IMG/VR virus record: IMGVR_UViG_2737471838_000003
Span: 1 to 36,968 of that record
From: a virus
Taxonomy: Duplodnaviria; Heunggongvirae; Uroviricota; Caudoviricetes
Length of the DNA: 36,968 bases
Reading direction: 5' to 3' (one strand)
How positions within the stretch are numbered: the first letter of the stretch is position 1; every line of letters begins with the position of its first letter. The position numbers were made by a program, and so were the translations under genes. The notes under the pieces are model-generated. The model made no database searches. It was not told the origin of the DNA and worked only from the letters and a program-made list of their open reading frames with translations. Below, piece after piece: positions 1-35,732 of this stretch.

Positions 1-21
1 CTACGATAACCCACTCTTTTG

Positions 22-67
22 TTGCCCCATTTTTGCCCCTTTTGCAGCGTTTTGCCCCATTTTTGCC
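22..67. repeat. 16-bp direct repeat ttgccccatttttgcc present twice (22-37 and 52-67)
   Basis: Identical 16-mers read directly in the first 70 nt, in the flank downstream of the adhesin gene; function unknown. Confidence 0.5.
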
Positions 68-246
68 ACCGAAAAATGCGAGAATTTCTCAATCTGTAGC
101 CTGCAAATTGCGCCCATGAATTCTTTCCAAGAGAATCAGTTTCGGCTGGAAATCATTCAATACTCACACTAAAACAAAAAGCCCGCTTATGGTGGACTGC
201 AGGCTTTTAGATTCCGTGATTTAAAAACAATAGTTATAGAAACAAA

Positions 247-1455
247 TTACCAGCCTACAGCAATACCCCCTCCGATTACTGCTCCATCAGTATTATTCCA
301 TGAAGACGATGCACGAATATTGGTGTTTTCATTAAGTTTGTATTGAACACCAACAGCTACTGCATTACCGTTTCTATAGTTACCAACCCCAACGCCGGCA
401 CTAAATGTCTGGTTATTCACATACGGGATATTGGTCATTGCTGCTACGGAAGCAATACCTGCATTAGCTTTTTTAGCATTAGCTTCTATCTTATCATTCA
501 GCTGCTTAAATGTTGAATTTATCTTCCCATTAATTTGGTTAAATTTTGTATCAGTATATGCGAATGATTCTTGTTTTGCTGATTGTATGTTTTTATTAAT
601 AACACCGTTATTTTTCGTAACTTCCTGATCAGTGTATGCCATTGATTCGCTTTTGGCATTATTAATATTCTGATTTATCACAGCATTATTTTTGGTAACC
701 TGCTGATCTGTATATGCCAGTGATTCATTCTTGGCATTATTGATGTTTTGATTAATTACGGTATTATTTTTAGCTATCTCATTCCCAGTATAATCTTTCA
801 GTTGCTTAACGTTAACACCATCAGTATCCTCAGTACCTGCGGCAACATGGGTCAATTGTCGATTAGTATTACCCGTCCCAAAAGATACACTATACTCTCT
901 GTCAGTTGTACTTCCCCCGCCGATGGCAACACTATTATTATGTTCAGCCACACTCTGTGAGCCTAGTGAGATGGCATTTTCTGCATTAGATGTAGCCCCT
1001 ACACCAATAGCTAATGTATCTCCTGCAGTCGCCTGGGCGGAGGAACCAAATGCAACACTGTTTTCCCCGGTTGCTTTAGACGCAGCACCTACACTTGTAG
1101 AATTAGCGACTGCCTCACTACCCGCACCATTTGCTATAGCTGAATCACCGTTTACTTTACTAAATGAACCAATGGCTACCGAGTTATTTCCAACAACATT
1201 TGCATTTGCGCCAATAGCTGACGATGAGTTACCTTGAGATGAAGAATATGAACCAATTGCAGTATTATAGGCTCCTTCGGTTTTTGAAACAGCGCCAATT
1301 GTTGTAGAAGAAGAACCTGAAGCATTTGCATATGCACCAATAGCTGTCGCATTACTATCAGTTGCCTGGCTATTATCACCGGCATTATAAGAATTATATG
1401 CATAAGAATTTGCTGAAACTGTAAATATAACAGAGGCTACAAATAGTTTTTTCAT
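247..1455 (-). CDS. YadA-like trimeric autotransporter adhesin, Eib-family-like (prophage-borne)
   Basis: Likely start is MKKLFVASVIFTVSANSYA (classic signal peptide) at 1455 rather than the ORF-track start at 1497, though no clear SD precedes it. Repeated head motifs (NSVAIG, SVAIG, TAIG), a repetitive coiled-coil stalk and a C-terminal anchor ending in aromatic W (GIASVAAMTNIPY...GGGIAVGW). Position beyond the tail fibre genes matches where Eib genes sit in prophages. Confidence 0.75.
   Translation of the reverse strand: MKKLFVASVIFTVSANSYAYNSYNAGDNSQATDSNATAIGAYANASGSSSTTIGAVSKTEGAYNTAIGSYSSSQGNSSSAIGANANVVGNNSVAIGSFSKVNGDSAIANGAGSEAVANSTSVGAASKATGENSVAFGSSAQATAGDTLAIGVGATSNAENAISLGSQSVAEHNNSVAIGGGSTTDREYSVSFGTGNTNRQLTHVAAGTEDTDGVNVKQLKDYTGNEIAKNNTVINQNINNAKNESLAYTDQQVTKNNAVINQNINNAKSESMAYTDQEVTKNNGVINKNIQSAKQESFAYTDTKFNQINGKINSTFKQLNDKIEANAKKANAGIASVAAMTNIPYVNNQTFSAGVGVGNYRNGNAVAVGVQYKLNENTNIRASSSWNNTDGAVIGGGIAVGW
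550..771 (-). repeat. Three tandem ~66-bp repeats encoding 22-aa stalk repeats (KNNxVINQNINNAKxESxAYTDQxVT) inside the adhesin gene
   Basis: Three near-identical peptide units in the translation; near-identical nucleotide units visible around 590-790. Confidence 0.6.
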
Positions 1456-2030
1456 AGAAATGACGTATGTTAAATAGATTGAAAAGATAAGATTCAAATC
1501 AATTAAATGACGCTTTAAAAATAAGCGGCAGGATTTTATTCATCTGATAAAAATAGCGCAAGCGTTGTCTTATATGGAATATTCAGATAAGTCTTATCAA
1601 AAAAAGCGGTATAACAAATACATAACATTGCAGCCATTATAAATACATTATAAAAATGACAGAGATATTTAATTAAATCCAAAGCATTTTTTCAATATGG
1701 ATTTCGAAGAACTTGTTATAGTACATTAATCAATCAATTATTGGTATTTCGCTCACTGTTCATATAGTTTTAATACATCAATGCATAAGAACATTTTCTC
1801 ATTCATAAAAGCGATAAAAACTGTTGTACCTTATATTGTTAATGTTTGGTAACAAAGACAAATCCGACAAGGCATTGATCATCCCCTATGATACCCATAG
1901 AAAGAATTATCTGAAATATAATAACAATATAAAGTATATTATTGCTAATGAAACTATATGATAGCTTCACATTCAGCAATACCTGCTCAACCTTATCTCT
2001 GGAAATGAACATTGCTAACTTTCCTACTCC

Positions 2031-2250
2031 TTAATCGTTCTCCCAGAGCGCATCATCCACACCGACAATCCCCTCAGGCATCAGCCAGGTGACATTTTCC
2101 GCTAATGGGCTGGTTCAGAGATAAATAGTGCGTCCCCGGAAGCCAAGTCAAAGAGCATTTTTCCCCTGTGACCTTCAACGGCTACTTACTGTTTAAAAAC
2201 AGCTACGATGCCAGCATAGATACTCTTGAATACGATGTACTACGTTTTTT
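2031..2250 (-). pseudogene. Remnant of a second tail fibre assembly (tfa) gene, broken by frameshift and stops
   Basis: Minus-strand translation gives MLFDLASGDALFISEPAH-stop in one frame and ENVTWLMPEGIVGVDDALWEND-stop in another; ASGDALFISE and ENxTWL match the middle of lambda Tfa as I recall it. No intact ORF. Confidence 0.4.
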
Positions 2251-2251
2251 C

Positions 2252-2818
2252 TTATTCTGGACTGAACTCCCTAACCTGCTTCAAATCCAGGAGATTGCTC
2301 AGTTCCTCTTTCATTTCACGCTGATGACGATAAATCTCATTATTGCGATCAACCTGCGCCTGCGCCATAGCTGCAGCCAGCTCCTCCAGTTCCGTCATCG
2401 ACAGTTTCACCTGCTGATTATCAGCATCACTCCATGTCATAACGTCCCACTGCCCTGAGTCAGCCCCTGCAGCCATTACCACCGGGTAAAGGCGGGCCAG
2501 CGAGTCGGGGCCGCCATTCCAGGTGTGTCCGTTCCATTCGAATGTGAACGGCTGCGCTTCCTGTTCTGTGCGCCAGGCTTCGATTTCCCACTTTTTGGCA
2601 TCTCTGGCTGCGGCAATAACTTCAGGCGTGACTGTGAACGGGGCGATTTCACCCCATCTGCCACTCTGCAGTTCCTGCCAGATTTGCCGGCCAGTTTCTG
2701 CTGTATCATTTGCCGAAGCTGTGTATGGAAGTGGCATTTCCATACCTGAAAACTCGACCATGCAGTCAACATCTCCGGTTTCAAGATACCTTTGTTCGCT
2801 GATTTTTTTTATTTTCAT
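2252..2818 (-). CDS. tfa: Tail fibre assembly / chaperone protein (Tfa-like)
   Basis: ATG at 2818 overlaps the stf stop (TGATG) with an AAGGA SD 7 nt upstream; classic stf-tfa synteny. Sequence similarity to lambda Tfa is weak, so the call rests mainly on position. Confidence 0.6.
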   Translation of the reverse strand: MKIKKISEQRYLETGDVDCMVEFSGMEMPLPYTASANDTAETGRQIWQELQSGRWGEIAPFTVTPEVIAAARDAKKWEIEAWRTEQEAQPFTFEWNGHTWNGGPDSLARLYPVVMAAGADSGQWDVMTWSDADNQQVKLSMTELEELAAAMAQAQVDRNNEIYRHQREMKEELSNLLDLKQVREFSPE

Positions 2819-5307
2819 CACATCGTCCTTATAAAAGCAGCAATAATAAACTCACCTTCTCCGGTGTAATCCGGGGTTCCGGATAATGCACGGTAAACAC
2901 CCGGCAATGTGTGCTTCTCTGTACCAGAAAGCCCAATCTTCGGCGACGATAATGCCCCCTCCGGAACACTGAATACCACGGGAGTAAGGACGGAGCCCGG
3001 GTAATATTGCCCTCGTACGACGCTAGCTGTTTTAGTGCTGCCACGGCTATTAAAGGCTGCCAGTGTTATGCTTCCAGCATACGGATCACCATAATTATCG
3101 TTTGTGGTCATGCTCAGGATTTTGGCAATATCATACAGGTCAATATTTATTTTCACCCATTCACTCAGTGAAGGGCCATGTATGGCATCGTATGTTGCCC
3201 GATACAGTTCACCGTTCATCCCGTAAAAAACAGCCATCTTCAGCATCAGCGGGACAGTAAGGTTATTCCGCATCTCATCAGCGAAAAATAAATCAATCAC
3301 ACCTGTAAACTGTACTTCCGGTATAATTTCGCAGTCAGCGCTGACCGTATACCGCCCCGGTGTGGCATTTGAGATCCAGTCAAGAAGCACTTCCTTCGAC
3401 GAAAAGCTGAGAACGTCACCTTTTGTGAAGATATGCCCGAATCCCAGACTTCCTGCAACAGCGGCCCGCCCCTGCGTTCTGTCATAAATGCCTGACTGAA
3501 GCCCATAATTTCCGCCTGCTGCTGAGTTTCCACTATTTCCATTGATACCCAGAACGTCACACATCTCTTCGGCTGTGGATTGTGACAACAGCTGTTTCCC
3601 TTTTTCAGAAACAGGAGCCAGAGAACACTGCCCGTTACCGCTAAAACTGGGAAACCCATCTTCACCAGATGGAAGACTGCCTAACGCAGTCAGAACGGGA
3701 TTTAAAGGCTGTTTTCCGGCCAGCATCTTCATTATCGTTACGGAAAACGCCGGGTCATTACCCAGCGCCTCCGCCAGTTCGTTCAGCGTGTCCAGGGTTT
3801 CAGGAGATGAACCCACAAGAGCAGCAAGCAATTTGCGGACAAACGCCGCATTCACTGTTTCCAGACCTGAAGCATCGTCCGGTGGTGTCGGTGTCATAGG
3901 GGTACCGGTGAAGACCGGACTATCCAGTGACGCTTTTGTCTTCACCTCATTCATGACGTTACTGACTGCAAGGGATGTGGCGGCCTCTGTCTGCGAAGTG
4001 CTGTCAGTACGGTTACTGAGCTTGACAACTCCCTTTGTGGTCGTACTGGCATCTTCCAGGCCCACAGCAGATGCAATCTCCTCTGCCCGTTTTGCCGCAT
4101 TTTCTGCGCGTGTTGCTGCAGACTCAGCAGAACTTTTGCTCTGCACTGCCGCTGTCGCACTGCCAGCTGCCTCTGTCGCCTTCGCGGATGCCGTCGTGGC
4201 ACTGCCCTGCGCCTCTGACGCCAGCCTTGCCGCCTCATCTTTTGAAGCTGACGCCGATGATGCTGATGACGCCGCCGAACTGGCGGACGATACGGCTGCC
4301 GTTTTTGAGGATTCTGCGCTGGCTTCCGACGCTTTCGCGTTCGTCTCTGATGTCTTCGCTGCGGAAGCAGATCTCTCTGCTGCACTGGCCTGTTCAGCGG
4401 CTTCACCAGCCTTCGTTGTGGCTGCTGAAGCGGACGATGCAGCGCTTTCTGCCGATTTTCCGGCGGCGGTGGCACTGGCTGAGGCCTCCTCCGCTTTAAC
4501 TGACGCCTCACGGGACGATGATGCAGCGGCAGTTTCTGAGCCTTCCGCTGCAGAAGCGCTCTGTGCCGCTGCCGTTTCAGAAGACCTTGCGTTCGTCTCG
4601 GACGTTTTTGCCGCCTTCGCGGAATTGCCTGCCGCCGTTGCCGAGGACGCTGCACCACTGGCGCTCAAGGCGGCGTTCGTTTCTGATGATTTTGCCGCCT
4701 CTTTTGAAGCCGACGCATCCCTGGCTGAGGTGGCAGCTTCTGACGCTTTCGTGGTCGCGGTGGATGCAGAAGTGGCGGCTGATTGTTGTGACGCTGCCGC
4801 ATTCGTTTCTGACATTTTCGCCGCACCGGCACTGGTGGCCGCCGCGCGTTTTGAGGACTCTGCAGCAGCGGCACTTTTTGATGCCTCAGTGGCCTTTGCT
4901 GATGCCGTTTCTGCGCCGGAAGACGCTTCCTGAGCCGACGTCGCAGCCTGTCCGGCGGACGTGCTGGCGGCGCGTGCTGAGTCCGCAGCATCAGTCGCAT
5001 GGGTTGCCGCCTCACGGGCTGATGTACCGGCATCGCTGGCTGATTTTTTCGCAGCTGCCGTATTCTGTGCCACTGAGGACGCGTTACGCGCCACCTCTTC
5101 CACCATCAGCTCAAAACGGCGCAGTGCCTCCGGACGGGCATCATCCTCCGTCATGGCACCGAGAAAATCATTCAGCGTACCGGGTTGAGAATCTTCATAC
5201 ACGGTGATGGTCCCGGCATGTGACGGCGGAAAACCGTCAACCAGCAGGATGACAGCGTACTGGCCATACTCAACATCCATACTGTAACGCCCGGCTTCAG
5301 CCCCCAC
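2818..5307 (-). CDS. stf: Side tail fibre protein, Stf-like, N-terminally truncated by deletion (likely pseudogene)
   Basis: From GRYSMDVEYGQY onward matches the lambda Stf N-region and Ala/Ser/Thr-rich repeat region, with a divergent C-terminal receptor-binding part. About 45 N-terminal residues are missing; the ORF opens at a GTG inside the J fusion junction. Confidence 0.8.
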   Translation of the reverse strand: MGAEAGRYSMDVEYGQYAVILLVDGFPPSHAGTITVYEDSQPGTLNDFLGAMTEDDARPEALRRFELMVEEVARNASSVAQNTAAAKKSASDAGTSAREAATHATDAADSARAASTSAGQAATSAQEASSGAETASAKATEASKSAAAAESSKRAAATSAGAAKMSETNAAASQQSAATSASTATTKASEAATSARDASASKEAAKSSETNAALSASGAASSATAAGNSAKAAKTSETNARSSETAAAQSASAAEGSETAAASSSREASVKAEEASASATAAGKSAESAASSASAATTKAGEAAEQASAAERSASAAKTSETNAKASEASAESSKTAAVSSASSAASSASSASASKDEAARLASEAQGSATTASAKATEAAGSATAAVQSKSSAESAATRAENAAKRAEEIASAVGLEDASTTTKGVVKLSNRTDSTSQTEAATSLAVSNVMNEVKTKASLDSPVFTGTPMTPTPPDDASGLETVNAAFVRKLLAALVGSSPETLDTLNELAEALGNDPAFSVTIMKMLAGKQPLNPVLTALGSLPSGEDGFPSFSGNGQCSLAPVSEKGKQLLSQSTAEEMCDVLGINGNSGNSAAGGNYGLQSGIYDRTQGRAAVAGSLGFGHIFTKGDVLSFSSKEVLLDWISNATPGRYTVSADCEIIPEVQFTGVIDLFFADEMRNNLTVPLMLKMAVFYGMNGELYRATYDAIHGPSLSEWVKINIDLYDIAKILSMTTNDNYGDPYAGSITLAAFNSRGSTKTASVVRGQYYPGSVLTPVVFSVPEGALSSPKIGLSGTEKHTLPGVYRALSGTPDYTGEGEFIIAAFIRTM

Positions 5308-6980
5308 ACGCTGTATCCGGCAACGCCGTCAGGAACACGGCTCACTTTTACCTTCACGCCGTCGGTGACGGACTGGACCTCCACGCTGACCGGATTGCCA
5401 CTTCCGTCAACCAGGCTTATCAGCGTGGTACCGGAGGATGGCAGCGTGATTTCACGGTCGAGCGTCAGCGTCCGGGTCTGGCTGTTCACCGCCAGCACGC
5501 GCCCGCCGGTGCTGATACCCGCATAGTCATCATCGCAGATTTCAATGACATCCCCCGGTACATGGCGAAGCCCTTCCGCACCCACGCTGAAGTCCACGGT
5601 CTGCGTTTCCAGCAGTTCCGTTTTAATCAGCCACAGCCCGGCGCGGTGCGCCTGCCCCCGACTGGTACAGCCAAAGGCATCCATCTTCGTGACGTTACGA
5701 CCGTAACGGGCAATGGCCTGCGTGTCCTCCACAAGCTCTGTCGCCGTCTCCCAGCCGTTATCCGGGTCAATCCAGTTCACCTCAACGGCATTATGGCGGT
5801 CCTTCAGGGCGCTGAAGCTGTAGCGGAACGGCGCGCCATCATCCGGCATCACCACATTACTGCGGTTATAGGTCCACACCTTATCTGATGGTCGGTCCTG
5901 CACGAACGTCAGCGTCTGCCCGTTCCATATCGGCATACAGCGCATCGCCGAGCAGAAATCACTGAGCACATCCCACGCCTTGCGCTGTGTGGTCAGCCAG
6001 GCATTACAGGTGATGCGCGGCTCCGTGCCGCCAAAGCCGTCCGGCACCGACTGGTCGCAATTCTGGCCGATGACATACAGCGCCCATTTATCCACATCCG
6101 CCGCACCAAGACGTTTCCCCATGCCGTAGCGCGGATGGGTCAGCATATCCCACAGACACCAGGCCATGTTGTTGCTGTATGCCGGTTTAAACGTTCCGTC
6201 CCAGATACCGCTGTATTGCCGCGTCTGCGGGTTATAGTTCGACGGCACCTGCAGAATACGCCCGCGCAGATGATAATTACGGCTCACCTGCTGGCTGCCG
6301 AACTGCTCCGAGTCCACCTGCACACCGACCAGTGCCGTGTTCGGGTAGCACTGTTTCACATCGATGATTTCGGTGTATGACGACCAGAGCGTTTTGTTCT
6401 GCAGCTGGTCTGTGGTGCTGTCCGGCGTCATCCTGCGCATCCGTATACTGAACGGGCGCGGCGGCAGGTTACCCACCACCACCGAGGCCAGATACTGCGA
6501 GGTGGTTTTGCCCTTAATGGTGATGTCTTTTTCCGTCACCCAGCCACCATTACGCTGTATCTGAACCAGCAGGCGGACTTCCGACGGATTCCTGTCCCCC
6601 TTTGAGGTGGTTTCCACCAGTGCCTGCACGCCGAAGGTAACACGCAGTCGGTCAATGTTTGCCGACGTGATGGTCCGGGTGATCGGCGTGTCGTATTTCA
6701 CTTCCGTACCCAGCACCGTCTCGGAGCCGGAGGATTCAAATCCCTCCGGCGGTGTCTGCTCCTGCTCACCGGCCCGGAACACCACCGTGACGCCGGAGAT
6801 GTTGGTATTCCCCTCACTGTCCAGCACTGGCGTACTGTTCAGCAGCACGCTTTTTAATCCATCCACCGGACCTTCAATCGGCCCTTCGCTGATGGCGTCT
6901 ATCACGCTCAGCATCTGGGATGATTTCAGGTTGTCCTTCGCTTCGCGCGGGGTATGCCCCTTACTGCTGCCTTTACCCAT
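5172..6980 (-). CDS. J: Tail tip host-specificity protein J, N-terminal half only, C-terminally truncated (likely pseudogene)
   Basis: MGKGSSKGHTPREAKDNLKS... is collinear with lambda gpJ for about 555 aa, then the last 45 codons are out-of-frame read-through into stf sequence. Confidence 0.85.
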   Translation of the reverse strand: MGKGSSKGHTPREAKDNLKSSQMLSVIDAISEGPIEGPVDGLKSVLLNSTPVLDSEGNTNISGVTVVFRAGEQEQTPPEGFESSGSETVLGTEVKYDTPITRTITSANIDRLRVTFGVQALVETTSKGDRNPSEVRLLVQIQRNGGWVTEKDITIKGKTTSQYLASVVVGNLPPRPFSIRMRRMTPDSTTDQLQNKTLWSSYTEIIDVKQCYPNTALVGVQVDSEQFGSQQVSRNYHLRGRILQVPSNYNPQTRQYSGIWDGTFKPAYSNNMAWCLWDMLTHPRYGMGKRLGAADVDKWALYVIGQNCDQSVPDGFGGTEPRITCNAWLTTQRKAWDVLSDFCSAMRCMPIWNGQTLTFVQDRPSDKVWTYNRSNVVMPDDGAPFRYSFSALKDRHNAVEVNWIDPDNGWETATELVEDTQAIARYGRNVTKMDAFGCTSRGQAHRAGLWLIKTELLETQTVDFSVGAEGLRHVPGDVIEICDDDYAGISTGGRVLAVNSQTRTLTLDREITLPSSGTTLISLVDGSGNPVSVEVQSVTDGVKVKVSRVPDGVAGYSVWGLKPGVTVWMLSMASTLSSCWLTVFRRHMPGPSPCMKILNPVR

Positions 6981-7040
6981 TCCTCACGCTCCAGAAACGA
7001 CAAAACCGCCCTGAGGCGGTTTCACATAAAACGTTTTTCA

Positions 7041-7712
7041 TCAACGACCAATCACCACAACCTGACCACCGTCCCCCTCGTCTGCCGTGCTGATCTCCTG
7101 AGAAGCCACCCGCGACCCCACGCGCATTTCACCGTACAGAACAGGCAGAACATTGCCCTGGGCAACCATGTTATCCAGTGAGGAGAAATAGGTGTTCTGC
7201 TTACCGTTATCCGTTGTCTGTGTACGGGGAGTTCTGGCTTTCGGTGCCAGCATCTGCGCCACACCACCAAGTACCATACTGGCACCGAGAGAAAACAGGA
7301 TACCGGTCATACCACCGGCCCCAATGGCTGCCCCCCATGCTGCAAGAGTGGCTCCGGCAGTAAAGAATGATCCGGCAATGGCGGCAGCCCCCAGAACAAT
7401 CTGGAATACGCCCCCTGACTTGGCCCCGGCGACTCTGGGAACAATATGAATCACAGCGCCGTCAGGCAGAACCTCATGTAACTGCGCCGTCAATCCGGAC
7501 GTGCTGACGTCCCGCCCGGAAATCCGTACCTGATACCAGCCGTCGCTCAGTTTCTGACGAAACGCCGGGAGCTGTGTGGCCAGCGCCCGAATGGCTTCAG
7601 CCCCCGTTTTCACACGAAGGTCGATGCGGCGGCCAAATCGTTGTAAATCCCCGTAAAGGCAGATGCGCGCCATGCCCGGTGACGCCAGAGGGAGTGTGTG
7701 CGTCGCTGCCAT
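7041..7712 (-). CDS. I: Tail assembly protein I
   Basis: 223 aa, near-identical to lambda gpI as recalled (MAATHTLPLASPGMARICLYGDLQRFGRRIDLRVKTGAEAIRALATQ...). Confidence 0.9.
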   Translation of the reverse strand: MAATHTLPLASPGMARICLYGDLQRFGRRIDLRVKTGAEAIRALATQLPAFRQKLSDGWYQVRISGRDVSTSGLTAQLHEVLPDGAVIHIVPRVAGAKSGGVFQIVLGAAAIAGSFFTAGATLAAWGAAIGAGGMTGILFSLGASMVLGGVAQMLAPKARTPRTQTTDNGKQNTYFSSLDNMVAQGNVLPVLYGEMRVGSRVASQEISTADEGDGGQVVVIGR

Positions 7713-8353
7713 TTGTCGGTATACCTCTCTCGTTTGCTCAGTTGTTCAGGAATATGGTGCAGCAGCTCGCCGTCACCACAGTAAATGGCGGCATGATTCG
7801 GCACCGATGAACCAAAACAGCACAGCAGCACATCGCCCGGTTGTGCTGATGACAACGGCACCTGATACAGCCCTGTGGCCTCCAGATTATCCAGATAGAG
7901 ATTCTGACCGTGACGCCACCAGTCATCCCCGCGATGAAAATTCGGCATCTCAATCCCCGCCAGATGATAAGCATCCCGGAACAGCGTGTAACAGTCCGTC
8001 ACCCCGTGCTCAAAGCGCCGCCCGGTGAGATGCGGCACACAGCGGAACTTATGAATCGCCCCCCGGCAGACCAGCAACCACGGCAAATCACTCTGCACCT
8101 GCAGCCGCCGGTCAGCCTCACTCAGCCAGGGCAGACCACCGGGGTGGCTGTGGACCAGCGCCACAATCTCACCCTGCATTTCTGCCTGCAGCCAGCCCTC
8201 CGGAGCCATCCGGAAATAATCCTCCGGCTCACCGGAAATATTCACGCAGGGAAAATATCTTTCCCCCTCCGGCGTTCTCACCACGAAGCCGCACGACTCC
8301 GCTGGCGCACATCGCCGGGCGTGCGCCAGAATCGCTGATTCTGTCTCTGTCAT
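7610..8353 (-). CDS. K: Tail assembly protein K (JAB/MPN plus NlpC/P60 domains)
   Basis: Start at MTETESAILAHARRCAP (ATG at 8353); HSHPGG JAB motif; overlaps the start of I as in lambda. Confidence 0.9.
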   Translation of the reverse strand: MTETESAILAHARRCAPAESCGFVVRTPEGERYFPCVNISGEPEDYFRMAPEGWLQAEMQGEIVALVHSHPGGLPWLSEADRRLQVQSDLPWLLVCRGAIHKFRCVPHLTGRRFEHGVTDCYTLFRDAYHLAGIEMPNFHRGDDWWRHGQNLYLDNLEATGLYQVPLSSAQPGDVLLCCFGSSVPNHAAIYCGDGELLHHIPEQLSKRERYTDKWQRRTHSLWRHRAWRASAFTGIYNDLAAASTFV

Positions 8354-8357
8354 GGGA

Positions 8358-9056
8358 TTACTGCGAAAGTTTGTTAATGGAAAGGAAGCCGCCAAAGTTG
8401 CCGACGTTATTGCGAAACTTACAGCCACTCAGGCATTTGCTGCATTTATCCTTCGTGATATCGGACGTCGGCTGGTCATATTCATCCGCGACAGCCGGAC
8501 CGCTATAACCGCACTCGTCACCGCGATAGGTCCAGGTGCAGGTGTTGGCCAGCATGATACGTCCCGGAAAAACAGCGCCATCCGTTTCCGTCGGCGTGGA
8601 CAGTACAAAGGAGGCACTGACCGCGCTCAGTTCGCTGCACTGCTCGATGCGCCAGCGGCTGATCACCTCCTGCTCCGGATCGGCGTCACTGTTTCCGTTG
8701 ACGAAGTTCACCGCATCCAGAAAACGGGCGTAAACCTTACGCCGGACCACCGTTCCGCCGACCAGACTCTGCAGATCTTCCGCCATCCCGGTGACCATAC
8801 CGTACAGGTTAGAAACCGTCAGCGTGGGGCGCGTACTGATGCCTTTGCCATTCAGTTCAAAACCACTCCCCTGAATGGGATACGGCTGATACTGTCGCCC
8901 CTGCCAGGTGACCGGCTCACCTTTTTCGTTCTGCTCATTACAGAAAAAATAACGTTCTCCACCGACCTCTGTCAGATCGATTTCCCAGAACACCACGCTG
9001 GCCGACTGCTCCGCACGGGTGCATTCATTCAGTGTTTCCTGCCGGATATCCTGCAT
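8358..9056 (-). CDS. L: Minor tail protein L
   Basis: 232 aa; MQDIRQETLNECTRAEQSASVVFWEIDLTEVGGERYFFCNEQNEKGEPVTWQGRQYQPYPIQGSGFELNGKG matches lambda gpL. Confidence 0.9.
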   Translation of the reverse strand: MQDIRQETLNECTRAEQSASVVFWEIDLTEVGGERYFFCNEQNEKGEPVTWQGRQYQPYPIQGSGFELNGKGISTRPTLTVSNLYGMVTGMAEDLQSLVGGTVVRRKVYARFLDAVNFVNGNSDADPEQEVISRWRIEQCSELSAVSASFVLSTPTETDGAVFPGRIMLANTCTWTYRGDECGYSGPAVADEYDQPTSDITKDKCSKCLSGCKFRNNVGNFGGFLSINKLSQ

Positions 9057-9385
9057 CAGTTCACCACCTGTTCAAACTCTGCGCTGAACTCAACACGCAG
9101 CATACTGACCCGCGACGACCATTTTGCGCAGGTCACCTTTATCTGCCGCCACTCATAAGGCGGCGTCCACAGAAAGGATTTCCAGCCACCGTGCTCAGCC
9201 AGAAACGACTCCAGCGCCGTGGCCTCCCAACGGGGAACAGAAAGCGTCACGCTGTACGTTTTCAGGTCGGCATTCAGCCCGGCAGGCGCTCGCTGGGAAT
9301 AGCCATCACCAAAGCGCACCTTTCTTACAGAAGGGGCCGAAGCCACATCCATACCGGGTTTCACTTTCCAGCGGAAGGTTTTCAT
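9056..9385 (-). CDS. M: Minor tail protein M
   Basis: 109 aa; MKTFRWKVKPGMDVASAPSVRKVRFGDGYSQRAPAGLNADLKTYSVTL... matches lambda gpM; adjacent to L. Confidence 0.9.
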   Translation of the reverse strand: MKTFRWKVKPGMDVASAPSVRKVRFGDGYSQRAPAGLNADLKTYSVTLSVPRWEATALESFLAEHGGWKSFLWTPPYEWRQIKVTCAKWSSRVSMLRVEFSAEFEQVVN

Positions 9386-26459: not shown

Positions 26460-27206
26460 CTACCTCACTGCGCCAGCCTGACCAACATTCGGGCGCCAGC
26501 TCTCCCAGTTAAAATTCACCCAGCGCCCGCCGTTCATGGTCATGCGATCCATAATTCGCTCGCCGAGCAATGTTTTCATGGCCTCATAGTTCAGGTTTGT
26601 CAGCATCCCCACGCTGCGCATCGACGCTGTCCGGCGATCAACAATCTGATGCAGCACCACCTGCTCGTTTTTTGTCTCGCGCTGAATGCCAATTTCATCA
26701 AGAACCAGCAGATCCACTTCGCACAGTTCCCGCAAAAATTTTTTGCCTGATTGCCCGTCGTCATAGCTGGCGTGTAGAGCACTCATGACATCAGCCACGG
26801 TAACCACAATCACTGTCTGGCCATCTTTCAGCAAGCGATTCCCGATAGCCGCCGCCAGATGGTTTTTTCCGGTACCAGGTTTTCCGCTGAACGCAAAATT
26901 TGTACACCCGGCCATCAGTTCATCAGCGATAGATTTCGCCTGGCTCAACGCGTATCGCTGACCGTCGTTCTGCACCAGGTAATTCGCAAACGAGCATTTA
27001 CAGTGCAACGGCTGGATGCCTGAGCGATTCAGAATTTTTTCCACCCGCAACTGGCGATTCAGGCGGTTGATCTCCTCGCTACGTTTCTGGCCTTCAGCAA
27101 GTTGCCACTCGCGCCACTCCGCTACCGTTCTGAATGGGGCGGTTACATGTGGCGGGGCTAGTCTGCGGATACGTTCAAGAACGCCGCCTGTCGCAATATT
27201 TTTCAT
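26460..27206 (-). CDS. DnaC-like replicative helicase loader (phage replication protein, YdaV-like)
   Basis: 248 aa; FSGKPGTGKNHLAAAIGNRL (Walker A), LLVLDEIG (Walker B), and overall collinearity with E. coli DnaC (MKNIATGG...RSGIQPLHCKCSFANY...). Confidence 0.9.
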   Translation of the reverse strand: MKNIATGGVLERIRRLAPPHVTAPFRTVAEWREWQLAEGQKRSEEINRLNRQLRVEKILNRSGIQPLHCKCSFANYLVQNDGQRYALSQAKSIADELMAGCTNFAFSGKPGTGKNHLAAAIGNRLLKDGQTVIVVTVADVMSALHASYDDGQSGKKFLRELCEVDLLVLDEIGIQRETKNEQVVLHQIVDRRTASMRSVGMLTNLNYEAMKTLLGERIMDRMTMNGGRWVNFNWESWRPNVGQAGAVR

Positions 27207-27212
27207 GGTCTG

Positions 27213-28001
27213 TTACCCCCTGAAGCCTGGCGGGATCGCACTGTCCGGCAACGAGACGGTGTTAACCTGTCGGAGCAACGTCTCAGGCCGAACACCTTTC
27301 GGCGCGAACAGGCCCTGGTATTCATTGGCGATGCTGTGTCGAATCACCTGCTCAGGTGTAAAACCCTGCTGACGGAATTTTTCCAGTTCCCGTATCGCCC
27401 CGTTAGCGCCCTGCTCCGTTCGAATCGGTTTTCGCAATGCCTGTCTGAACCGGACCCACTCATGCCAGAGTGTTTCCGGCAACCAATCGGGCAGCTCAAT
27501 AGTCTCCGGCTCGAATTTTTTAGACGCTCGTTTTTGGCGAGGGGGATTTAGGGGGAGATCAGTATTTAGATCTTCCTCTTCCTTTTCCTCTGGTAACGCT
27601 TTTTGATCCGTTTGTGTAACGCTGGCAGCGTTACCTTGTCGTTTCAGTTCGCGTATTTTGGTTACTCGCTCGTTTGTAACCGCCCGTTTTTTAGAGCTTT
27701 TTCCGTTATGACGTTCAAAGTTAGGTAGAGAAAGCCCACCGTCATTTTCGACCAGCCATCCAACCTGAATTAACGCATCAGCAAAACCAGACATAAAAGT
27801 GATGCGATCTATTGCACTTTTTGTAACGCCGCGAGCGTTACAATCTGCATTACCGTCTATCATTTGTTGATCCGCCCATGCCCAGAAGCGAATAACCTTC
27901 CCTAATGCGGCATCTGGATCAATATTCAGAATCTCAGCAAGCCTGAATATTTCCGGCTTATCCGGCGTAATAACCTCGAGCTTTATCCAGTTTGAAGCCA
28001 T
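27213..28001 (-). CDS. Replication initiation protein (lambda O functional analogue, YdaU-like)
   Basis: 262 aa immediately upstream of and coupled to the DnaC-like gene, downstream of the cro/YdaT-like genes; AAGGTG SD. Confidence 0.7.
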   Translation of the reverse strand: MASNWIKLEVITPDKPEIFRLAEILNIDPDAALGKVIRFWAWADQQMIDGNADCNARGVTKSAIDRITFMSGFADALIQVGWLVENDGGLSLPNFERHNGKSSKKRAVTNERVTKIRELKRQGNAASVTQTDQKALPEEKEEEDLNTDLPLNPPRQKRASKKFEPETIELPDWLPETLWHEWVRFRQALRKPIRTEQGANGAIRELEKFRQQGFTPEQVIRHSIANEYQGLFAPKGVRPETLLRQVNTVSLPDSAIPPGFRG

Positions 28002-28078
28002 TTGTTTTCACCTTGTAACGCTTGCAGCGTTACATTTAACTGATACCGAACAAAACAATCCGGCACGATTAATTTCAA

Positions 28079-28501
28079 TCAATGCACTACGACAGAATCG
28101 CCAGGCGACCCGCCGCCGCTGAAATGCGCTTTACGGTAAACGGCCTGGACTGCATCATCATGCGCATCAATTGCTGTACTCAATGCTTCCTGCGCGGCCA
28201 GTAATGCACGGCGTTCCAGGGTATCGAAGATGCTGAGTCGGTGGCGCAGCTCGCGCGGAAGGATTGCCAGAATTGCAGGGACCAGTTTCTGAATTTTTTC
28301 CCTTTGCGCTTCCGTTTCACCTTTTAACCAACGGTGATAGATGTTCTGCTGATTATTCCAGTCCTTGCCTGGTACCAGGGGCAATTCGCAGCCTCCCAGG
28401 CGCAGATATTCTTCAGTAATGGCACTGGCAACCCATGCCTGCCCTTTTTCAGATGCCAGGGCTAACAACACTGATTCGATGTGCTCATGCCTGATTTTCA
28501 T
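28079..28501 (-). CDS. YdaT-like protein (cII-position regulator of Rac-type prophages)
   Basis: 140 aa; MKIRHEHIESVLLALASEKGQAWVASAITEEYLRLGG... resembles Rac YdaT as recalled; ATGA overlap with the cro-like gene. Confidence 0.65.
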   Translation of the reverse strand: MKIRHEHIESVLLALASEKGQAWVASAITEEYLRLGGCELPLVPGKDWNNQQNIYHRWLKGETEAQREKIQKLVPAILAILPRELRHRLSIFDTLERRALLAAQEALSTAIDAHDDAVQAVYRKAHFSGGGSPGDSVVVH

Positions 28502-28740
28502 GAATCAACCGCTCCTATGCTGTTTTCGCTATGCTTACCGTCTGGGGGGAATACATCGTCAAGTCCACAATGAGCGCCAAGCCGATTAAGGGTTGAAACA
28601 ATTCTTCTGCACTCCTCTAGCCCAGGGGTACGAAAATTTGCTTCGTAATTTGCCAGTCGGCTTTGTATCCACCCTAACTGAACAGCGAGTTGTCTTTGAG
28701 ACAGCCCAAGCTGTTTTCGATATGTTGAAATTTTGTTCAT
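28498..28740 (-). CDS. Cro-like HTH regulator (XRE family)
   Basis: 80 aa with an HTH (LGLSQRQLAVQLGWIQSRLANYE); GGAGG SD; divergent from the repressor gene across a 96-bp operator region. Confidence 0.65.
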   Translation of the reverse strand: MNKISTYRKQLGLSQRQLAVQLGWIQSRLANYEANFRTPGLEECRRIVSTLNRLGAHCGLDDVFPPDGKHSENSIGAVDS

Positions 28741-28836
28741 TGAAAACCTCCGATGACAATTTTAAACACATCTTGTGTTATATGGTCAAGCTGTTTTGTG
28801 TTTTGCGTAAATCACGATTCGTGATACAAGAATGCA
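28741..28836. promoter_or_regulatory. Immunity-region intergenic with two palindromic operator candidates (aacaca tct tgtgtt at 28765-28779; atcacga t tcgtgat at 28811-28825) and divergent promoters
   Basis: Palindromes read directly from sequence between divergent cro-like and CI-like genes; the repressor ATG has no SD, consistent with a leaderless or weakly initiated transcript. Confidence 0.55.
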
Positions 28837-29256
28837 ATGGAGAAAGAAAACGAAAAAATTGCCGCTAGTAGGCTCAATGACAAAATTGCAATGCGTCTTA
28901 AAGAGCGCAGGCAGAAGCTTGGTTTATCTCAAGGAAAACTTGCTGAAATCTGCGGATGGACGCAATCGCGCATAGGTAACTATGAGGCGGGCAGCAGAAA
29001 TGTTGGAGTGCATGACGCTGTCGTATTGGGAAAGGCACTTGGCATATCTCCTCCTGAGCTCCTCTTTGGAGAACAGGAATCTTCTGAATTGTGGTTAAAT
29101 GAATCCCAACGAAAACTTCTTGAGTTGTTTAACCAGCTACCGGGCTCAGAACAACAACGAATGATTGAGCTATTTGAGGTCCGGCTAAAAGAAATCGATG
29201 AGTATGTAGAAAAATATTTGAGAGGCAGACTTAAAGATAATCCCCCACCGGAGTAA
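28837..29256 (+). CDS. CI-like prophage repressor (XRE-family HTH, RacR-like, no peptidase domain)
   Basis: 139 aa; HTH LGLSQGKLAEICGWTQSRIGNYEAG; divergent from the cro-like gene; followed by a terminator. Confidence 0.7.
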   Translation: MEKENEKIAASRLNDKIAMRLKERRQKLGLSQGKLAEICGWTQSRIGNYEAGSRNVGVHDAVVLGKALGISPPELLFGEQESSELWLNESQRKLLELFNQLPGSEQQRMIELFEVRLKEIDEYVEKYLRGRLKDNPPPE

Positions 29257-29286
29257 TGATCTTGCTATCACAGTAATATGCCAATC

Positions 29287-29311
29287 AGCCCGCTATCAGC
29301 GGGCTTTTTTG
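29287..29311 (+). terminator. Rho-independent terminator after the repressor gene (agcccgc tatca gcgggct then T6)
   Basis: 7-bp perfect stem, 5-nt loop, tttttt on the plus strand. Confidence 0.65.
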
Positions 29312-29341
29312 TACCATCATCATATTACACCACCACAAAAC

Positions 29342-29370
29342 ACACATCGTGTTGACACATGAGAACACAT
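29342..29370 (+). promoter_or_regulatory. Candidate sigma70 promoter (TTGACA, 17-nt spacer, TTTAAT) overlapping an aacaca t tgtgtt palindrome
   Basis: Consensus -35 hexamer and near-consensus -10 with 17-nt spacing; palindrome resembles the operator half-sites in the immunity region. Confidence 0.45.
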
Positions 29371-29560
29371 TGTGTTTAATAAGCATATCCAAACAACGCC
29401 CCACCAGAGAACGGCAGGACAATACCTCGAGTTATCCAGCCACTGAACAGGGCTAAGTAGCCAGCCTGAGGCATACGAACATGACGGCAGTTGTTGATTG
29501 ATACAAAGCGCAGTAGATAAAACGTTCCGCCACCCGGCGTTAAGGGGAAATGAGGTCAAC

Positions 29561-29716
29561 ATGGATACTATCGATCTTGGTAACAACGAATCTCTGGTAT
29601 GTGGCGTGTTCCCCAACCAGGATGGAACATTCACCGCCATGACATATACCAAAAGCAAAACGTTTAAAACCGAAGGTGGCGCGCGTCGCTGGTTGGTCAA
29701 AACATTAACGGAGTGA
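29561..29716 (+). CDS. Small Rac-type early protein (YdaF-like, 51 aa)
   Basis: MDTIDLGNNESLVCGVFPNQDGTFTAMTYTKSKTFKTEGGARRWLVKTLTE with a GAGG SD 6 nt upstream; the longer ORF-track version starts at a TTG. Confidence 0.5.
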   Translation: MDTIDLGNNESLVCGVFPNQDGTFTAMTYTKSKTFKTEGGARRWLVKTLTE

Positions 29717-29717
29717 C

Positions 29718-30227
29718 TTATTCGAAGCGCTTAGTGCAAGGGTTCCATGTTTCAAGTATTAGTTCCTCATAGTCGGAATCGAGTTGAAAATGGGAGTTAG
29801 TGCCTAATGAGCACTTTCTAACAAAACGAATTATTCCCGTTCTAACAAGCAAGGCTGTACTTTGATTTTCAGGACAAAGCGCAAGTAGGTCATTGAACTG
29901 GAGGAATGATTCAATAATACGAATTTGTTCTACATTTAGCGAATTCAGATTTTTTAGCATTTTGCGCTTTTTTACGAAATCCCGAATCAGCTAGAACAGG
30001 CTCATGAAAAGGATAACTACTCTATCAAAGATTAAAGTAGAGACAAAAGCCATGCTAAAGCAGAATAGTTGCATGGAATATGGAATGGCACTTTTCTTTT
30101 CCAGGTACTCTGACAAGTTTTCTGGTACCAACATTAATATCAGAAAAAATATAACTATAGTAATCATAAACCGACTAACTGATTTTTCGGCAAAGAATTT
30201 TGCCAATGTTAAAAGACTTTCTAACAT
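29718..30227 (-). pseudogene. SieB-like superinfection-exclusion membrane protein gene interrupted by an in-frame TAG (29991-29993)
   Basis: Two minus-strand ORFs (30227-29994 and 29960-29718) are in the same frame, separated by one amber codon plus 10 sense codons; hydrophobic TM segments in the upstream part; position next to kilR matches sieB in Rac. Identity is by synteny only. Confidence 0.4.
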
Positions 30228-30667
30228 TTCAATAACTCTCAACTGTAAGGGTATTGAAATGTTAACACAAGCTCTCGCTGTAGGGGTATAGCAGAGACCA
30301 CCGAAGCCCGGAGGTGGTGAAATAAAACCGGGCACAACACGAAGGCGCATTTCCGATATCCATAAAGAGTCGGTCTTGTCTGTTAAATTTAAATGGTGGG
30401 AGTGCGCCTCCGGTTGTGAATAACAACACTGCTGTGTGTAGTCTTGGCGGCATCAGTTTTTTCTTGAAGTTCGACTGATGTCCGCCCTTTTTAAAGTGAA
30501 TTTTGTGATGCGGTGAATGCGGCTAAGCGCACGCGGCACAGTTAAAAGTCATGTTAGTCCTTATTGGTTTGGGTGGGAAAGCCGACTGTAATTGTTAACT
30601 GGTTGCAGTCACCTGGAGGCACCAGGCACCGCATCAACAAAGTTCATTTGTAAAAATGGAGATAATT

Positions 30668-30889
30668 ATGATTGCACATCACTTCGGAACTGATGAAATA
30701 CCACGTCAGTGTGTGACTCCTGGTGATTATGTTCTTCATGAAGGCCGGACATATATCGCCTCGGCAAACAATATTAAAAAGCGAAAACTTTATATTCGTA
30801 ACCTGACTACAAAAACATGCATTTCTGACTGCATGATTAAAGTCTTCCTCGGTCGTGATGGTTTACCTGTAAAGGCGGAGTCATGGTGA
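30668..30889 (+). CDS. kilR: KilR-like killing protein (FtsZ inhibitor of Rac prophage)
   Basis: 73 aa from [46 protein letters not shown]... with a GGAGA SD; matches Rac KilR as recalled. Confidence 0.7.
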
Positions 30890-31059
30890 TGACTAAGAAA
30901 ATAAAATGTGCTTACCACCTTTGCAATAAAGGAATTGAAGAAAGCAAAAGCATTAAAAGACCACTTCATTTCATGCGTGGAGTTATCCCAACGACGGAAA
31001 TGAAAAAATATTGTAGTGAAAATTGTGCCGAAAAAGACCAGATGGCACACGAACTTTAA
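30889..31059 (+). CDS. ydaE: YdaE-like small Cys-rich zinc-binding protein (56 aa); not in the ORF track
   Basis: Manual translation [59 protein letters not shown] overlaps the kilR stop. Confidence 0.65.
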   Translation: MTKKIKCAYHLCNKGIEESKSIKRPLHFMRGVIPTTEMKKYCSENCAEKDQMAHEL

Positions 31060-31132
31060 TTAACTGACTATGCGAAACTGAATTTATGCCAGCAATGGCA
31101 GGGATTCGCTCAACCTTAATTAAGGAGAAAAA

Positions 31133-31408
31133 ATGATTACCAATTATGAAGTCACTGTTGTAACTACCGATGACATTGTTCACGAGGTTAATCTGGAAGG
31201 AAAGCGTATTGGCTACGTGATTAAAACAGAAAATAAAGAAACCCCATTCACTGTGGTTGATATTGACGGCCCATCAGGCAACGTAAAAACACTTGATGAA
31301 GGTGTCACAAAAATGAGTCTGGTTCACATCGGAAAGAATCTGCCCGCAGAAAAAAAAGCCGGATTTCTGGCAACTCTGATTGCAATGAAATTAAAAGGTG
31401 AAATCTGA
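31133..31408 (+). CDS. racC: RacC-like protein
   Basis: 91 aa; MITNYEVTVVTTDDIVHEVNLEGKRIGYVIKTENKETPFTVVDIDGPSGNVKTLDEGV...; AAGGAG SD; immediately upstream of recE. Confidence 0.7.
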   Translation: MITNYEVTVVTTDDIVHEVNLEGKRIGYVIKTENKETPFTVVDIDGPSGNVKTLDEGVTKMSLVHIGKNLPAEKKAGFLATLIAMKLKGEI

Positions 31409-31506
31409 AAAAAGAAAGCCTGCACAACGTGCAGGCCTGAGTGAAGAACCTGGGACATTTATTCATCACTCGCAGTAATTTTAATCTGAGTTGAGGTTAA
31501 AAAACA

Positions 31507-34158: not shown

Positions 34159-34984
34159 GCAACCACCTATCGCAAAAGCCGATCTGCAAAAAACTCAGGG
34201 AAACCGTGCACCAGCAGCAGTTAACGATAAGGATGTGCTGTGCGTGATTAACAGCCCGGCAATGAAAGCGCAACTGGCAGCAGCTCTGCCACGTCACATG
34301 ACAGCGGAACGCATGATCCGCATTGCTACAACAGAAATCCGTAAAGTACCGGAACTAAGAAACTGTGACTCGACGAGTTTTATCGGTGCCATCGTACAGT
34401 GTTCACAGCTCGGACTTGAGCCAGGTAGCGCCCTCGGTCATGCATATCTGCTACCGTTCGGCAACGGAAAAGCAAAAAACGGTAAGAAGAACGTACAGCT
34501 GATCATCGGTTATCGCGGCATGATCGACCTTGCCCGTCGATCAGGTCAAATCATCAGTCTGTCAGCTCGTGTTGTCCGTGAATGTGATGAATTCAGCTAT
34601 GAACTTGGCCTTGATGAAAAACTGGTTCATCGTCCCGGTGAAAACGAAGATGCCCCTATAACCCATGTCTATGCTGTTGCAAAACTGAAAGACGGAGGAG
34701 TGCAGTTTGAAGTCATGACCCGCAAACAAGTAGAAAAAGTTCGCGACACACACAGCAAGGCGGCAAAAAACGCAGCGTCAAAAGGGGCGTCGTCCATCTG
34801 GGATGAACACTTTGAAGACATGGCCAAAAAGACAGTGATACGAAAACTGTTCAAGTATCTGCCGGTATCTATTGAAATCCAGCGTGCAGTATCGATGGAT
34901 GGAAAAGAGGTGGAAACAATTAATCCAGACGACATATCGGTTATAGCCGGGGAATACAGTGTAATCGATAATCCAGAAGAATAA
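34151..34984 (+). CDS. recT: Recombinase RecT (single-strand annealing protein)
   Basis: Start [24 protein letters not shown]... at 34151, overlapping the recE stop; collinear with E. coli RecT. Confidence 0.9.
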
Positions 34985-35028
34985 TCCAGCCTGGCGGTGT
35001 AATGCACCGCCAACGTGAGATAGTTTTT

Positions 35029-35235
35029 ATGACAAAAACTTTGAGATATGACGATGTTAAACCATGTCCGTTTTGTGGTTGTCCATCAGTAACGGTGAAA
35101 GACATTTCAGGATATTACCGGGCAAAATGCAACGGATGCGAATCCCGAACTGGCTATGGTGGAAGTGAATAAGAAGCGCTCGAAAGATGGAATAAACGAA
35201 CCACTGAAAATATTAATGGAGGCGTTCATGTATAA
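35029..35235 (+). pseudogene. RalR/Lar-like Cys4 small protein gene cut short by an in-frame TAA at 35170-35172
   Basis: ORF MTKTLRYDDVKPCPFCGCPSVTVKDISGYYRAKCNGCESRTGYGGSE-stop, then the same frame continues EALERWNKRTTENINGGVHV-stop; Rac RalR/Lar as recalled reads ...GYGGSEKEALERWNKR... uninterrupted. Confidence 0.55.
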
Positions 35236-35416
35236 AATTACCGCTACAATTGAAAAGGAAGGTGGCACTCCTACTAACTGGACAAGATATTCAAAATCTA
35301 AACTAACGAAATCAGAATGCGAAAAAATGCTCTCAGGTAAAAAAGAAGCAGGCGTTTCCAGAGAGCAGAAAGTAAAACTGATAAATTTTAATTGCGAGAA
35401 ACTTCAGTCCTCGTGA
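35228..35416 (+). CDS. Small Rac-type protein (YdaC-like)
   Basis: 62 aa from MYKITATIEKEGGTPTNWTRYSKSKLTKSECEKMLSGKK... with a GGAGG SD 5 nt upstream. Confidence 0.5.
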   Translation: MYKITATIEKEGGTPTNWTRYSKSKLTKSECEKMLSGKKEAGVSREQKVKLINFNCEKLQSS

Positions 35417-35515
35417 ATTGCATTGTATTCAAATTAAAACTTCATAGCTGATTATTAATAATCAACATCAGGCGTCAATTTCAGTCTAACATTGGCGCCT
35501 GCCAGAGGTGATGCG

Positions 35516-35731
35516 ATGGCACAAGTAATCTTTAATGAAGAGTGGATGGTTGAATACGGCCTGATGCTTCGCACTGGTCTGGGGGCCAGACAAATTGAAG
35601 CATACCGCCAGAACTGTTGGGTGGAGGGCTTCCACTTCAAACGAGTATCTCCTTTAGGTAAGCCAGACAGCAAACGAGGGATTATCTGGTACAACTATCC
35701 AAAGATAAATCAGTTTATCAAAGACTCATGA
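35516..35731 (+). CDS. xis: Excisionase (Xis-like)
   Basis: 71 aa from [44 protein letters not shown]...; GAGGTG SD; immediately upstream of and overlapping the integrase start. Confidence 0.65.
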
Positions 35732-35732
35732 T

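Follow-up and report, generated by a model that had tools for sequence, protein, structure and literature searches.

A deletion scar between J and stf in a Rac-type Escherichia coli prophage undergoing decay

In the window, the whole 36,968-nucleotide stretch of DNA analyzed here, a lambda-type tip attachment gene (J) runs into a side tail fiber gene (stf). What is this join, what is left of the two genes, and how did it arise? The window is a Rac-site prophage extending from uspF to intR/ttcA in the draft assembly GCA_032660865.1. The genes that mark a lambdoid prophage at the Rac site (ttcA) were found: intR by ttcA, xisR, recE/recT, kilR, ydaT/ydaV, and the uspF/ompN boundary. Positions 18001–36968 were 100% identical to DNA of strain ZYB62 annotated with the Rac early-region genes, and positions 1–5299 were 100% identical to C41 and ZYB62 DNA just past uspF. 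In the identical ZYB62 DNA, ralR is a pseudogene with an internal stop. The prophage still has Nu1, the 5' part of terminase A, H-M-L-K-I, a stump of J (J'), and a remnant of stf (stf'). The features around the join are as follows.

5294..5299, minus strand: deletion junction, one retained TGAAGC copy (three-way alignments with PhiR34_1 and C41, BLAST coordinates, simulation)
5172..6980, minus strand: J' pseudogene ORF, 602 codons, J residues 1–562 plus 40 out-of-frame codons (translation, Pfam, lambda alignment)
2818..5299, minus strand: stf' remnant, side tail fiber gene without its first ~45 codons and start codon (translation, Pfam, lambda alignment)
2252..2818, minus strand: intact DUF4376 gene directly downstream of stf' (C41/ZYB62 annotation of identical DNA, Pfam DUF4376)

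The window was aligned with phage PhiR34_1 and strain C41. J homology gave way to stf homology at 5294–5299, inside the interval 5270–5340 to which the sequence-only reading had assigned the junction. BLAST analysis indicated that J homology to PhiR34_1 ran from window position 7200 to 5294 (99.0%) and stf homology from 5302 to 4031 (89%). For C41, window positions 1–5299 were 100% identical on the stf side, and positions 5294–11930 matched the J-to-H side. In the three-way alignments, the only sequence common to both parents at the join was GCTTCA on the plus strand (window 5299–5294, TGAAGC on the coding strand), and a single copy was left. This word gives the exact form of the short shared motif (ctgaagc/gaagcc) proposed earlier. 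The retained hexamer corresponds to J nt 1682–1687 and stf nt 132–137. Simulation of 200,000 random deletions in a reconstructed ancestor gave a probability of 0.002 for a microhomology of at least 6 bp, indicating that the 6-bp microhomology at the J/stf join is unlikely by chance. The flanks are separated in relatives, one copy of the word was kept, and there is no mobile-element end, as in microhomology-associated (illegitimate) deletions. As far as sequence can tell, these data confirmed the J/stf scar as a genuine deletion event within an E. coli prophage of the Rac type that is in decay.

The J' frame starts at 6980 and ends with a stop codon at 5172–5174, 40 codons past the join. Alignment with lambda J indicated that 548 of residues 1–562 are identical (98%) and that the sequences diverge beyond. 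This puts the break at residue 562, and the earlier estimate of about residue 555 was slightly short. Translation indicated that the 40-codon tail is stf DNA read out of frame. The stretch beginning PGVTVWMLSMAS had been correctly assigned to this out-of-frame part, but GYSVWGLK, assigned likewise, still belongs to J (lambda counterpart EYSVWELK). Two Pfam domains were found in J', PF24801 (FNIII-A_GpJ; residues 86–207, E = 1.5e-41) and PF13550 (Phage-tail_3, hub; residues 330–498, E = 3.7e-43). Together with the 98% lambda identity, they identified the N-terminal part as that of a lambda-type tip attachment protein J. The Pfam search of J' found none of the four domains Ig_J, Ig_J_second, Phage_Tail_Tip, and Ig_GpJ_C (PF24421, PF24489, PF09327, and PF12421), which are all present in the intact J of C41. 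J' thus lacks the two Ig-like, the tail-tip fiber, and the C-terminal receptor-binding domains of a lambda-type J. The loss of the receptor-binding part had been proposed before, and the Pfam domains and the lambda alignment agreed on it. Judged from its predicted protein, J' is a truncated pseudogene of the tip attachment protein J family and no working member.

The stf' frame is open for 829 codons, and its DNA was 100% identical to the 870-aa stf of ZYB62. The match of Stf' to the Pfam domain phage_tail_N (PF08400) begins at profile position 44 of 134, whereas that of intact ZYB62 Stf covers 1–134. Stf' is thus without the first third of its N-terminal domain, and a complete PF08400 domain with its own start codon was not found. 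Stf' and lambda orf-401 shared 79% identity across 306 aligned residues, and the alignment begins at lambda residue 45 (codon 45/46), close to the residue 46 suggested at first. Alignments, translation, and Pfam all supported the view that a truncated J is fused out of frame to a 5'-truncated stf. Both are predicted to be dead genes, neither of which can work.

The same locus was compared in the sister strains C41, ZYB62, and A2. All three have an intact J and/or stf. Their J-to-stf interval is a 58-bp spacer, or IS3 in C41, and contains no lom. An ancestor rebuilt from ZYB62 and C41 DNA had an open J (1132 aa) and an open stf (870 aa), and the loss from it to the window was exactly 1907 bp. 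As lom is missing from the closest relatives, the loss amounts to about 1907 bp, whereas a lambda or PhiR34_1 layout would imply roughly 2.7 kb. The sequence-only reading had counted lom among the deleted DNA, which is probably wrong; a lom in the deleted segment fits the lambda and Qin-type layouts only. The frame follows from the length of the loss. As 1907 leaves a remainder of 2 on division by 3, the J frame enters stf for 40 codons and then stops; base J nt 1687 is codon position 1 in J and codon position 2 in stf. A deletion adjacent to IS3 was rejected, as no IS end is present at the junction, both breakpoints are away from the C41 insertion point (by 131 bp and 1712 bp), and the 100% identical ZYB62 has no IS3.

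The locus carries further damage. Another deletion was found in the window.

11929..11930, minus strand: other deletion junction, 2-bp overlap TA, joining terminase large subunit nt ~1485 to tape-measure gene H nt 13

This terminase–H deletion removed 8357 bp (portal to T) relative to C41. ZYB62 has an independent terminase–J deletion at a 4-bp CCAC, and C41 has its IS3 insertion. These separate lesions showed routine prophage decay. The ZYB62 fusion affects the same prophage with 100% identical flanks and is likewise a short-microhomology deletion. Unlike the window's scar, it runs from terminase nt ~1180 to J nt ~1936, is in frame, and is annotated as an 879-aa protein; ZYB62 also retains the stf 5' end missing from the window. 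Derivation of the window from ZYB62, or the reverse, was ruled out, as each retains DNA missing in the other.

The J stump was then compared with J alleles from the Rac and Qin sites. Mismatch maps, and an alignment of the window with the C41 Rac-site J, the C41 Qin-site J, and PhiR34_1, gave two features.

5294..6896, minus strand: Qin-type J patch, J nt 85–1687, 1603 bp (mismatch maps)
6889..6896, minus strand: crossover interval, J nt 85–92 (four-sequence alignment)

Over its 1603 bp, the patch had no mismatches to the J of the C41 Qin-site prophage or to PhiR34_1. It differed from the C41 Rac-site J at 56 sites. The allele is Rac-type upstream of the crossover interval and Qin-type downstream of it. 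In the next 5 kb beyond the patch, there were no mismatches to the Rac-site allele except one private SNP. The other edge of the patch is flush with the deletion junction. From these matches, the J side of the junction is not the resident allele. Because the patch is identical to a Qin-site J, a simple intramolecular deletion is not the sole mechanism that fits.

We consider it most probable, at roughly 60%, that the scar arose in two steps, an earlier exchange that brought in Qin-type J and then a deletion of ~1907 bp by microhomology at the Rac site. The ancestor, between uspF and ttcA, would have had the 1132-aa J, the 58-bp spacer, and the 870-aa stf. The Qin-type allele of the surviving J may have entered first, by an ordinary exchange of homologous DNA with another lambdoid prophage or a phage. 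Short-homology illegitimate recombination would later have removed ~1907 bp between the TGAAGC copies and kept one hexamer, possibly by replication slippage or by end-joining or annealing at the microhomology. There was presumably no selection for J or stf, since the prophage is also without the portal-to-T genes. In favor of the two-step reading, the breakpoints map cleanly, with 99–100% identity on each side and only 6 bases in common. Against it, the junction is known from a single draft assembly, and a foreign allele ending exactly at the junction would be a coincidence of two independent events. The exact J mosaic, including an intermediate with intact J–stf, was not found in 5426 complete E. 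coli genomes (best match, 98.9%), which also counts against two steps.

The same patch could have been made in one step, a less probable reading. In homology-facilitated illegitimate recombination (HFIR), one end is homologous, the opposite end is joined at a 3–10 bp microhomology, and a deletion accompanies the insertion of kb-scale DNA (PMC3240628). The window has a donor-type tract (5294–6896) with one homologous and one microhomology boundary and with recipient DNA lost, a pattern that fits this description. A break in the resident J–stf region would have been repaired by HFIR, or by an equivalent one-ended break repair, on a template from the J of a co-resident Qin-site prophage or of an incoming PhiR34_1-like phage. 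Homologous exchange near J nt 85–92 would have been followed by joining of the strand end at J nt 1687 to the resident stf at TGAAGC, so that about 3.5 kb of resident DNA gave way to 1.6 kb of donor J with a net loss of 1907 bp. The exact match of the patch and its end at the junction argue for one step, and RecE and RecT are encoded by the prophage itself. Along about 30 kb, the flanking DNA was 100% identical to that of ZYB62, which means that all events were very recent. The missing intermediate is also in its favor, as weak negative evidence. However, HFIR has been detected in E. coli but was reported to be very inefficient there (PMC3240628), and plain deletions are frequent in the lineage, the terminase–H and ZYB62 deletions having the resident allele on both sides. 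The end sequence would be the same under both models, and a donor J in the source genome is only presumed. HFIR was also defined experimentally for incoming linear DNA, whereas the donor and single-event origin here are inferred. On this less probable reading, the scar would be a natural, sequence-resolved one-step HFIR between co-resident lambdoid prophages, in which broken Rac-site tail genes were patched from a Qin-site J and the gap was closed at the 6-bp microhomology.

The single draft assembly could also suggest a contig that misjoins the J of one prophage to the stf of another. E. coli genomes have multiple copies of J and stf (median, 4 places per genome), and the allele of the J segment is that of another type of prophage. 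We consider such an artefact very improbable. The joins share only 6 bp (J/stf), 8 bp (allele switch), and 2 bp (terminase–H); graph assemblers need k-mer-length overlaps, so reads must span the joins. An assembler path-switch between two prophages was rejected as the main reading on these overlaps. In addition, the junction lies deep within the 264-kb contig JAVAEG010000006.1, around positions 97188–97193, with unique chromosomal flanks, and the sister strains show that such deletions do occur at the locus. A functional rearrangement, with production and use of a J–Stf hybrid or of an Stf that restarts with a shortened N terminus, can hardly be right. It is favored by the long stf' frame, in which window position 5202 was called as the start of a 794-aa product. 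The reading frame excluded an in-frame J–Stf fusion, and a restarted Stf' would be without one third of its N-terminal domain. The portal through tail tube and T genes are lost, so there is no particle to carry such a protein. The exact J' protein was found on one contig only. A 401-bp junction query gave no place with at least 80% coverage in the 5426 complete genomes, and an exact junction 33-mer had no match in metagenome contigs or viral contigs.

The scar is real but of an ordinary kind. Decay through deletions and IS insertions is established for the cryptic Rac prophage of E. coli K-12 and for defective lambdoid prophages generally. The window resembles K-12 Rac in its chromosomal site and in intR by ttcA, xisR, ralR, recET, kilR, ydaT/ydaV, and stf. 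In both, internal deletions took structural genes and left truncated tail genes; the window's breakpoints are different and private to its lineage. Alone, the scar carries little weight; it adds another private deletion that inactivates genes of a cryptic Rac-type prophage. For annotation, J and stf here should be marked as pseudogenes. The source of the window, ZYB62, and C41 are near-identical, with different independent prophage damage and almost no point mutations between them. The three-strain comparison is a small natural snapshot of how quickly structural decay proceeds compared with substitution. The foreign J patch, which stops right at the junction, may be a case of HFIR-like inter-prophage repair in the field. 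If the one-step reading were true, prophage cross-talk, possibly aided by the prophage's own RecET, would drive decay as well as mosaicism.

In lambda, lom lies between J and stf, unlike in the closest relatives of the window prophage. Lambda stf is seen as two ORFs, orf-401 and orf-314. The stf defect of laboratory lambda comes from a frameshift dividing the gene into these two, not from an N-terminal deletion.

The genes around the junction lie on the minus strand, where two open frames overlap:

6980 to 5172, minus strand: J', the truncated J pseudogene ORF, 602 codons with a lambda J-like start
5307 to 2818, minus strand: open frame of stf', the 5'-truncated gene, reading as a side tail fibre

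BLASTN against the reference phage PhiR34_1 matched window 7200-5294 to J (99.0%) and window 5302-4031 to stf (89%), two blocks that are 2.7 kb apart in that phage. Three-way alignments with PhiR34_1 and with E. coli C41 showed that TGAAGC was the sole sequence common to both parents at the breakpoints; one copy is kept in the window, at 5299-5294. J' matched lambda J residues 1-562 at 548 of 562 positions and was unrelated beyond. The sequence-only reading had correctly seen the truncation, but its break at about residue 555 fell 7 residues short, as the identity continues through residue 562. The stretch GYSVWGLK still belongs to J and shows two allelic Glu-to-Gly changes; the out-of-frame stf reading begins at PGVTVW. 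The stf frame could be aligned to lambda Stf, starting at residue 45 of the latter. The base that opens a codon in J (nt 1687) is the second of its codon in stf, which puts the fusion out of frame. J' stops after 40 junk codons past the junction. The junction, the truncation of J and its out-of-frame fusion to a 5'-truncated stf, all proposed earlier, were thus borne out by alignments, BLASTN and translation.

Pfam analysis detected only FNIII-A_GpJ and Phage-tail_3 in J'. Intact C41 J additionally has Ig_J, Ig_J_second, Phage_Tail_Tip and the C-terminal receptor-binding domain Ig_GpJ_C, confirming that J' has lost its receptor-binding part, as had been suggested. The match of Stf' to the N-terminal tail-fibre domain begins at profile position 44 of 134, and Stf' lacks its own start codon. 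J' and stf' are both pseudogenes. The scar is not a functional J-Stf fusion, nor is it a new system.

The exact J' protein was found in one contig only, JAVAEG010000006.1 (264 kb) of the NCBI draft assembly GCA_032660865.1, which is 100% identical to window 1-16980. The window covers an entire Rac-site lambdoid prophage, with one end just beyond uspF and ompN and, at the other, intR adjoining ttcA. The early region holds xisR, recE, recT, kilR and ydaT/ydaV. The same prophage occupies the same site in three complete genomes of sister strains:

C41 (locus L002): head and tail module complete, J intact (1132 aa), an IS3 separating J from stf
A2 (locus L005): intact J; structural module full-length, with several genes annotated as frameshifted
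ZYB62 (locus L003): same flanks as the window (100% identity), with a separate deletion running from terminase A into the C-terminal part of J

C41 stf and its flank are 100% identical to window 1-5299, the 5' half of C41 J through H matches window 5294-11930, and C41 terminase A and beyond matches window 11929 onward. The window therefore carries two deletions, the J-stf junction and the following one:

11929-11930: terminase-to-H junction, 2-bp overlap (TA), 8357 bp lost relative to C41

Here the terminase large subunit keeps 494 codons and meets the tape-measure gene H at nt 13. The genes for portal, protease, decoration, capsid, FI, FII, Z, U, V, G and T are gone; with portal through tail tube and T lost, the prophage cannot build particles. 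The ZYB62 deletion lies at a 4-bp CCAC microhomology and joins terminase A (nt ~1180) in frame to the C-terminal part of J (from nt ~1936; L003 6989-9628, junction at 8449-8452); the 879-aa product bears the annotation 'terminase gpA endonuclease subunit'. The window and ZYB62 each retain DNA missing from the other, so their deletions are independent. The IS3-family element inside the 58-bp J-stf spacer of C41 (L002 6939-8116) is a third, independent lesion. C41 stf is annotated as two CDS, with DNA identical to the single 870-aa CDS of ZYB62.

In an ancestor rebuilt from window, ZYB62 and C41 DNA, both J (1132 aa) and stf (870 aa) were open. Relative to it, the window lacks 1907 bp (2 mod 3). 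Microhomology of at least 6 bp occurred at a frequency of 0.002 in 200,000 simulated random deletions on this ancestor. Lom had been listed among the deleted genes, which is probably wrong, since all three relatives lack it at this site: in A2 and ZYB62, only a 58-bp spacer separates J from stf. These Rac-site relatives thus differ from lambda and Qin-type prophages, whose layout is J-lom-stf.

Of the 57 mismatches to C41 in window 5294-11930, every one falls in 5317-7044 and none in 7045-11930. Window 5294-6896 (J nt 85-1687) is 100% identical to J of the C41 Qin-site prophage (L006) and likewise to PhiR34_1 J, marking the J DNA beside the junction as a foreign patch. It stops exactly at the junction. 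The allele switches within the 8-bp interval 6889-6896, and window 6897-7400 is the Rac-site allele except for one private SNP at 7044. This SNP sits between J and I, 64 bp upstream of the J start codon, and its base occurs in none of the five references compared (C41 Rac-site, C41 Qin-site, PhiR34_1, A2 and lambda). Outside the patch, the tail region carries the Rac-site allele. The exact J mosaic was not found in 5426 complete E. coli genomes, the best match being 98.9% over 6760-7040.

We favor an origin in two steps (probability about 0.6). Homologous exchange would have put the Qin-type allele into part of the resident J, and a later short-homology deletion would have taken out everything from J nt 1688 through stf nt 131. 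The final sequence is the same if both happened at once by homology-facilitated illegitimate recombination (HFIR): a break repaired from a Qin-type J, resolved by homology near J nt 85-92 at one end and joined illegitimately at TGAAGC at the other. HFIR is described as combining one homologous end, a 3-10 bp microhomology and a coupled deletion, and has been observed in E. coli, though with low efficiency (PMC3240628). The one-step origin would account for the patch ending at the junction, a mere coincidence if there were two steps. The events were also very recent, the flanks showing 0 mismatches to ZYB62 across about 30 kb, and a mosaic J with intact J-stf, the expected intermediate, was not found among complete E. 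coli genomes. Still, HFIR is rare and the lineage demonstrably acquires plain deletions often, which makes the one-step origin the less probable of the two and the two-step origin our preference. Any other origin of the scar is very improbable.

The junction rests on one draft assembly, and an assembly artefact would be the obvious concern. However, the overlaps at the three joins in this region are just 6, 8 and 2 bp, too little for an assembler to cross from one path to another, and the contig itself is long and its flanks are unique. From these sequence features, a real junction is by far likelier, and an artefact highly unlikely. Its breakpoints are private to one isolate. Decay of cryptic Rac-type prophages is a well-known process, and the scar is an ordinary case of it. 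The initial interpretation was mostly right, with three amendments: residue 562, lom probably outside the loss, and the foreign J allele.

Other genes were also observed. The uspF end of the prophage carries a gene for a YadA-like protein (247-1455, minus strand), past stf, the DUF4376 gene and a tail fibre assembly remnant. Downstream of the lysis genes, at about 16.4-17.7 kb, is a tRNA-Arg gene; the adjoining regulator gene is annotated as AraC family (477 nt) in C41 versus an HTH protein (744 nt) in ZYB62. In the early region, an S8 peptidase gene (22487-24742, minus strand) matched the PADLOC IetS model (E = 1e-270) and an AAA ATPase gene (24780-25949, minus strand) matched the IetA model (E = 2e-131). 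Judged by these matches, the pair looks like an ietAS anti-phage defence system carried by the Rac-site prophage.
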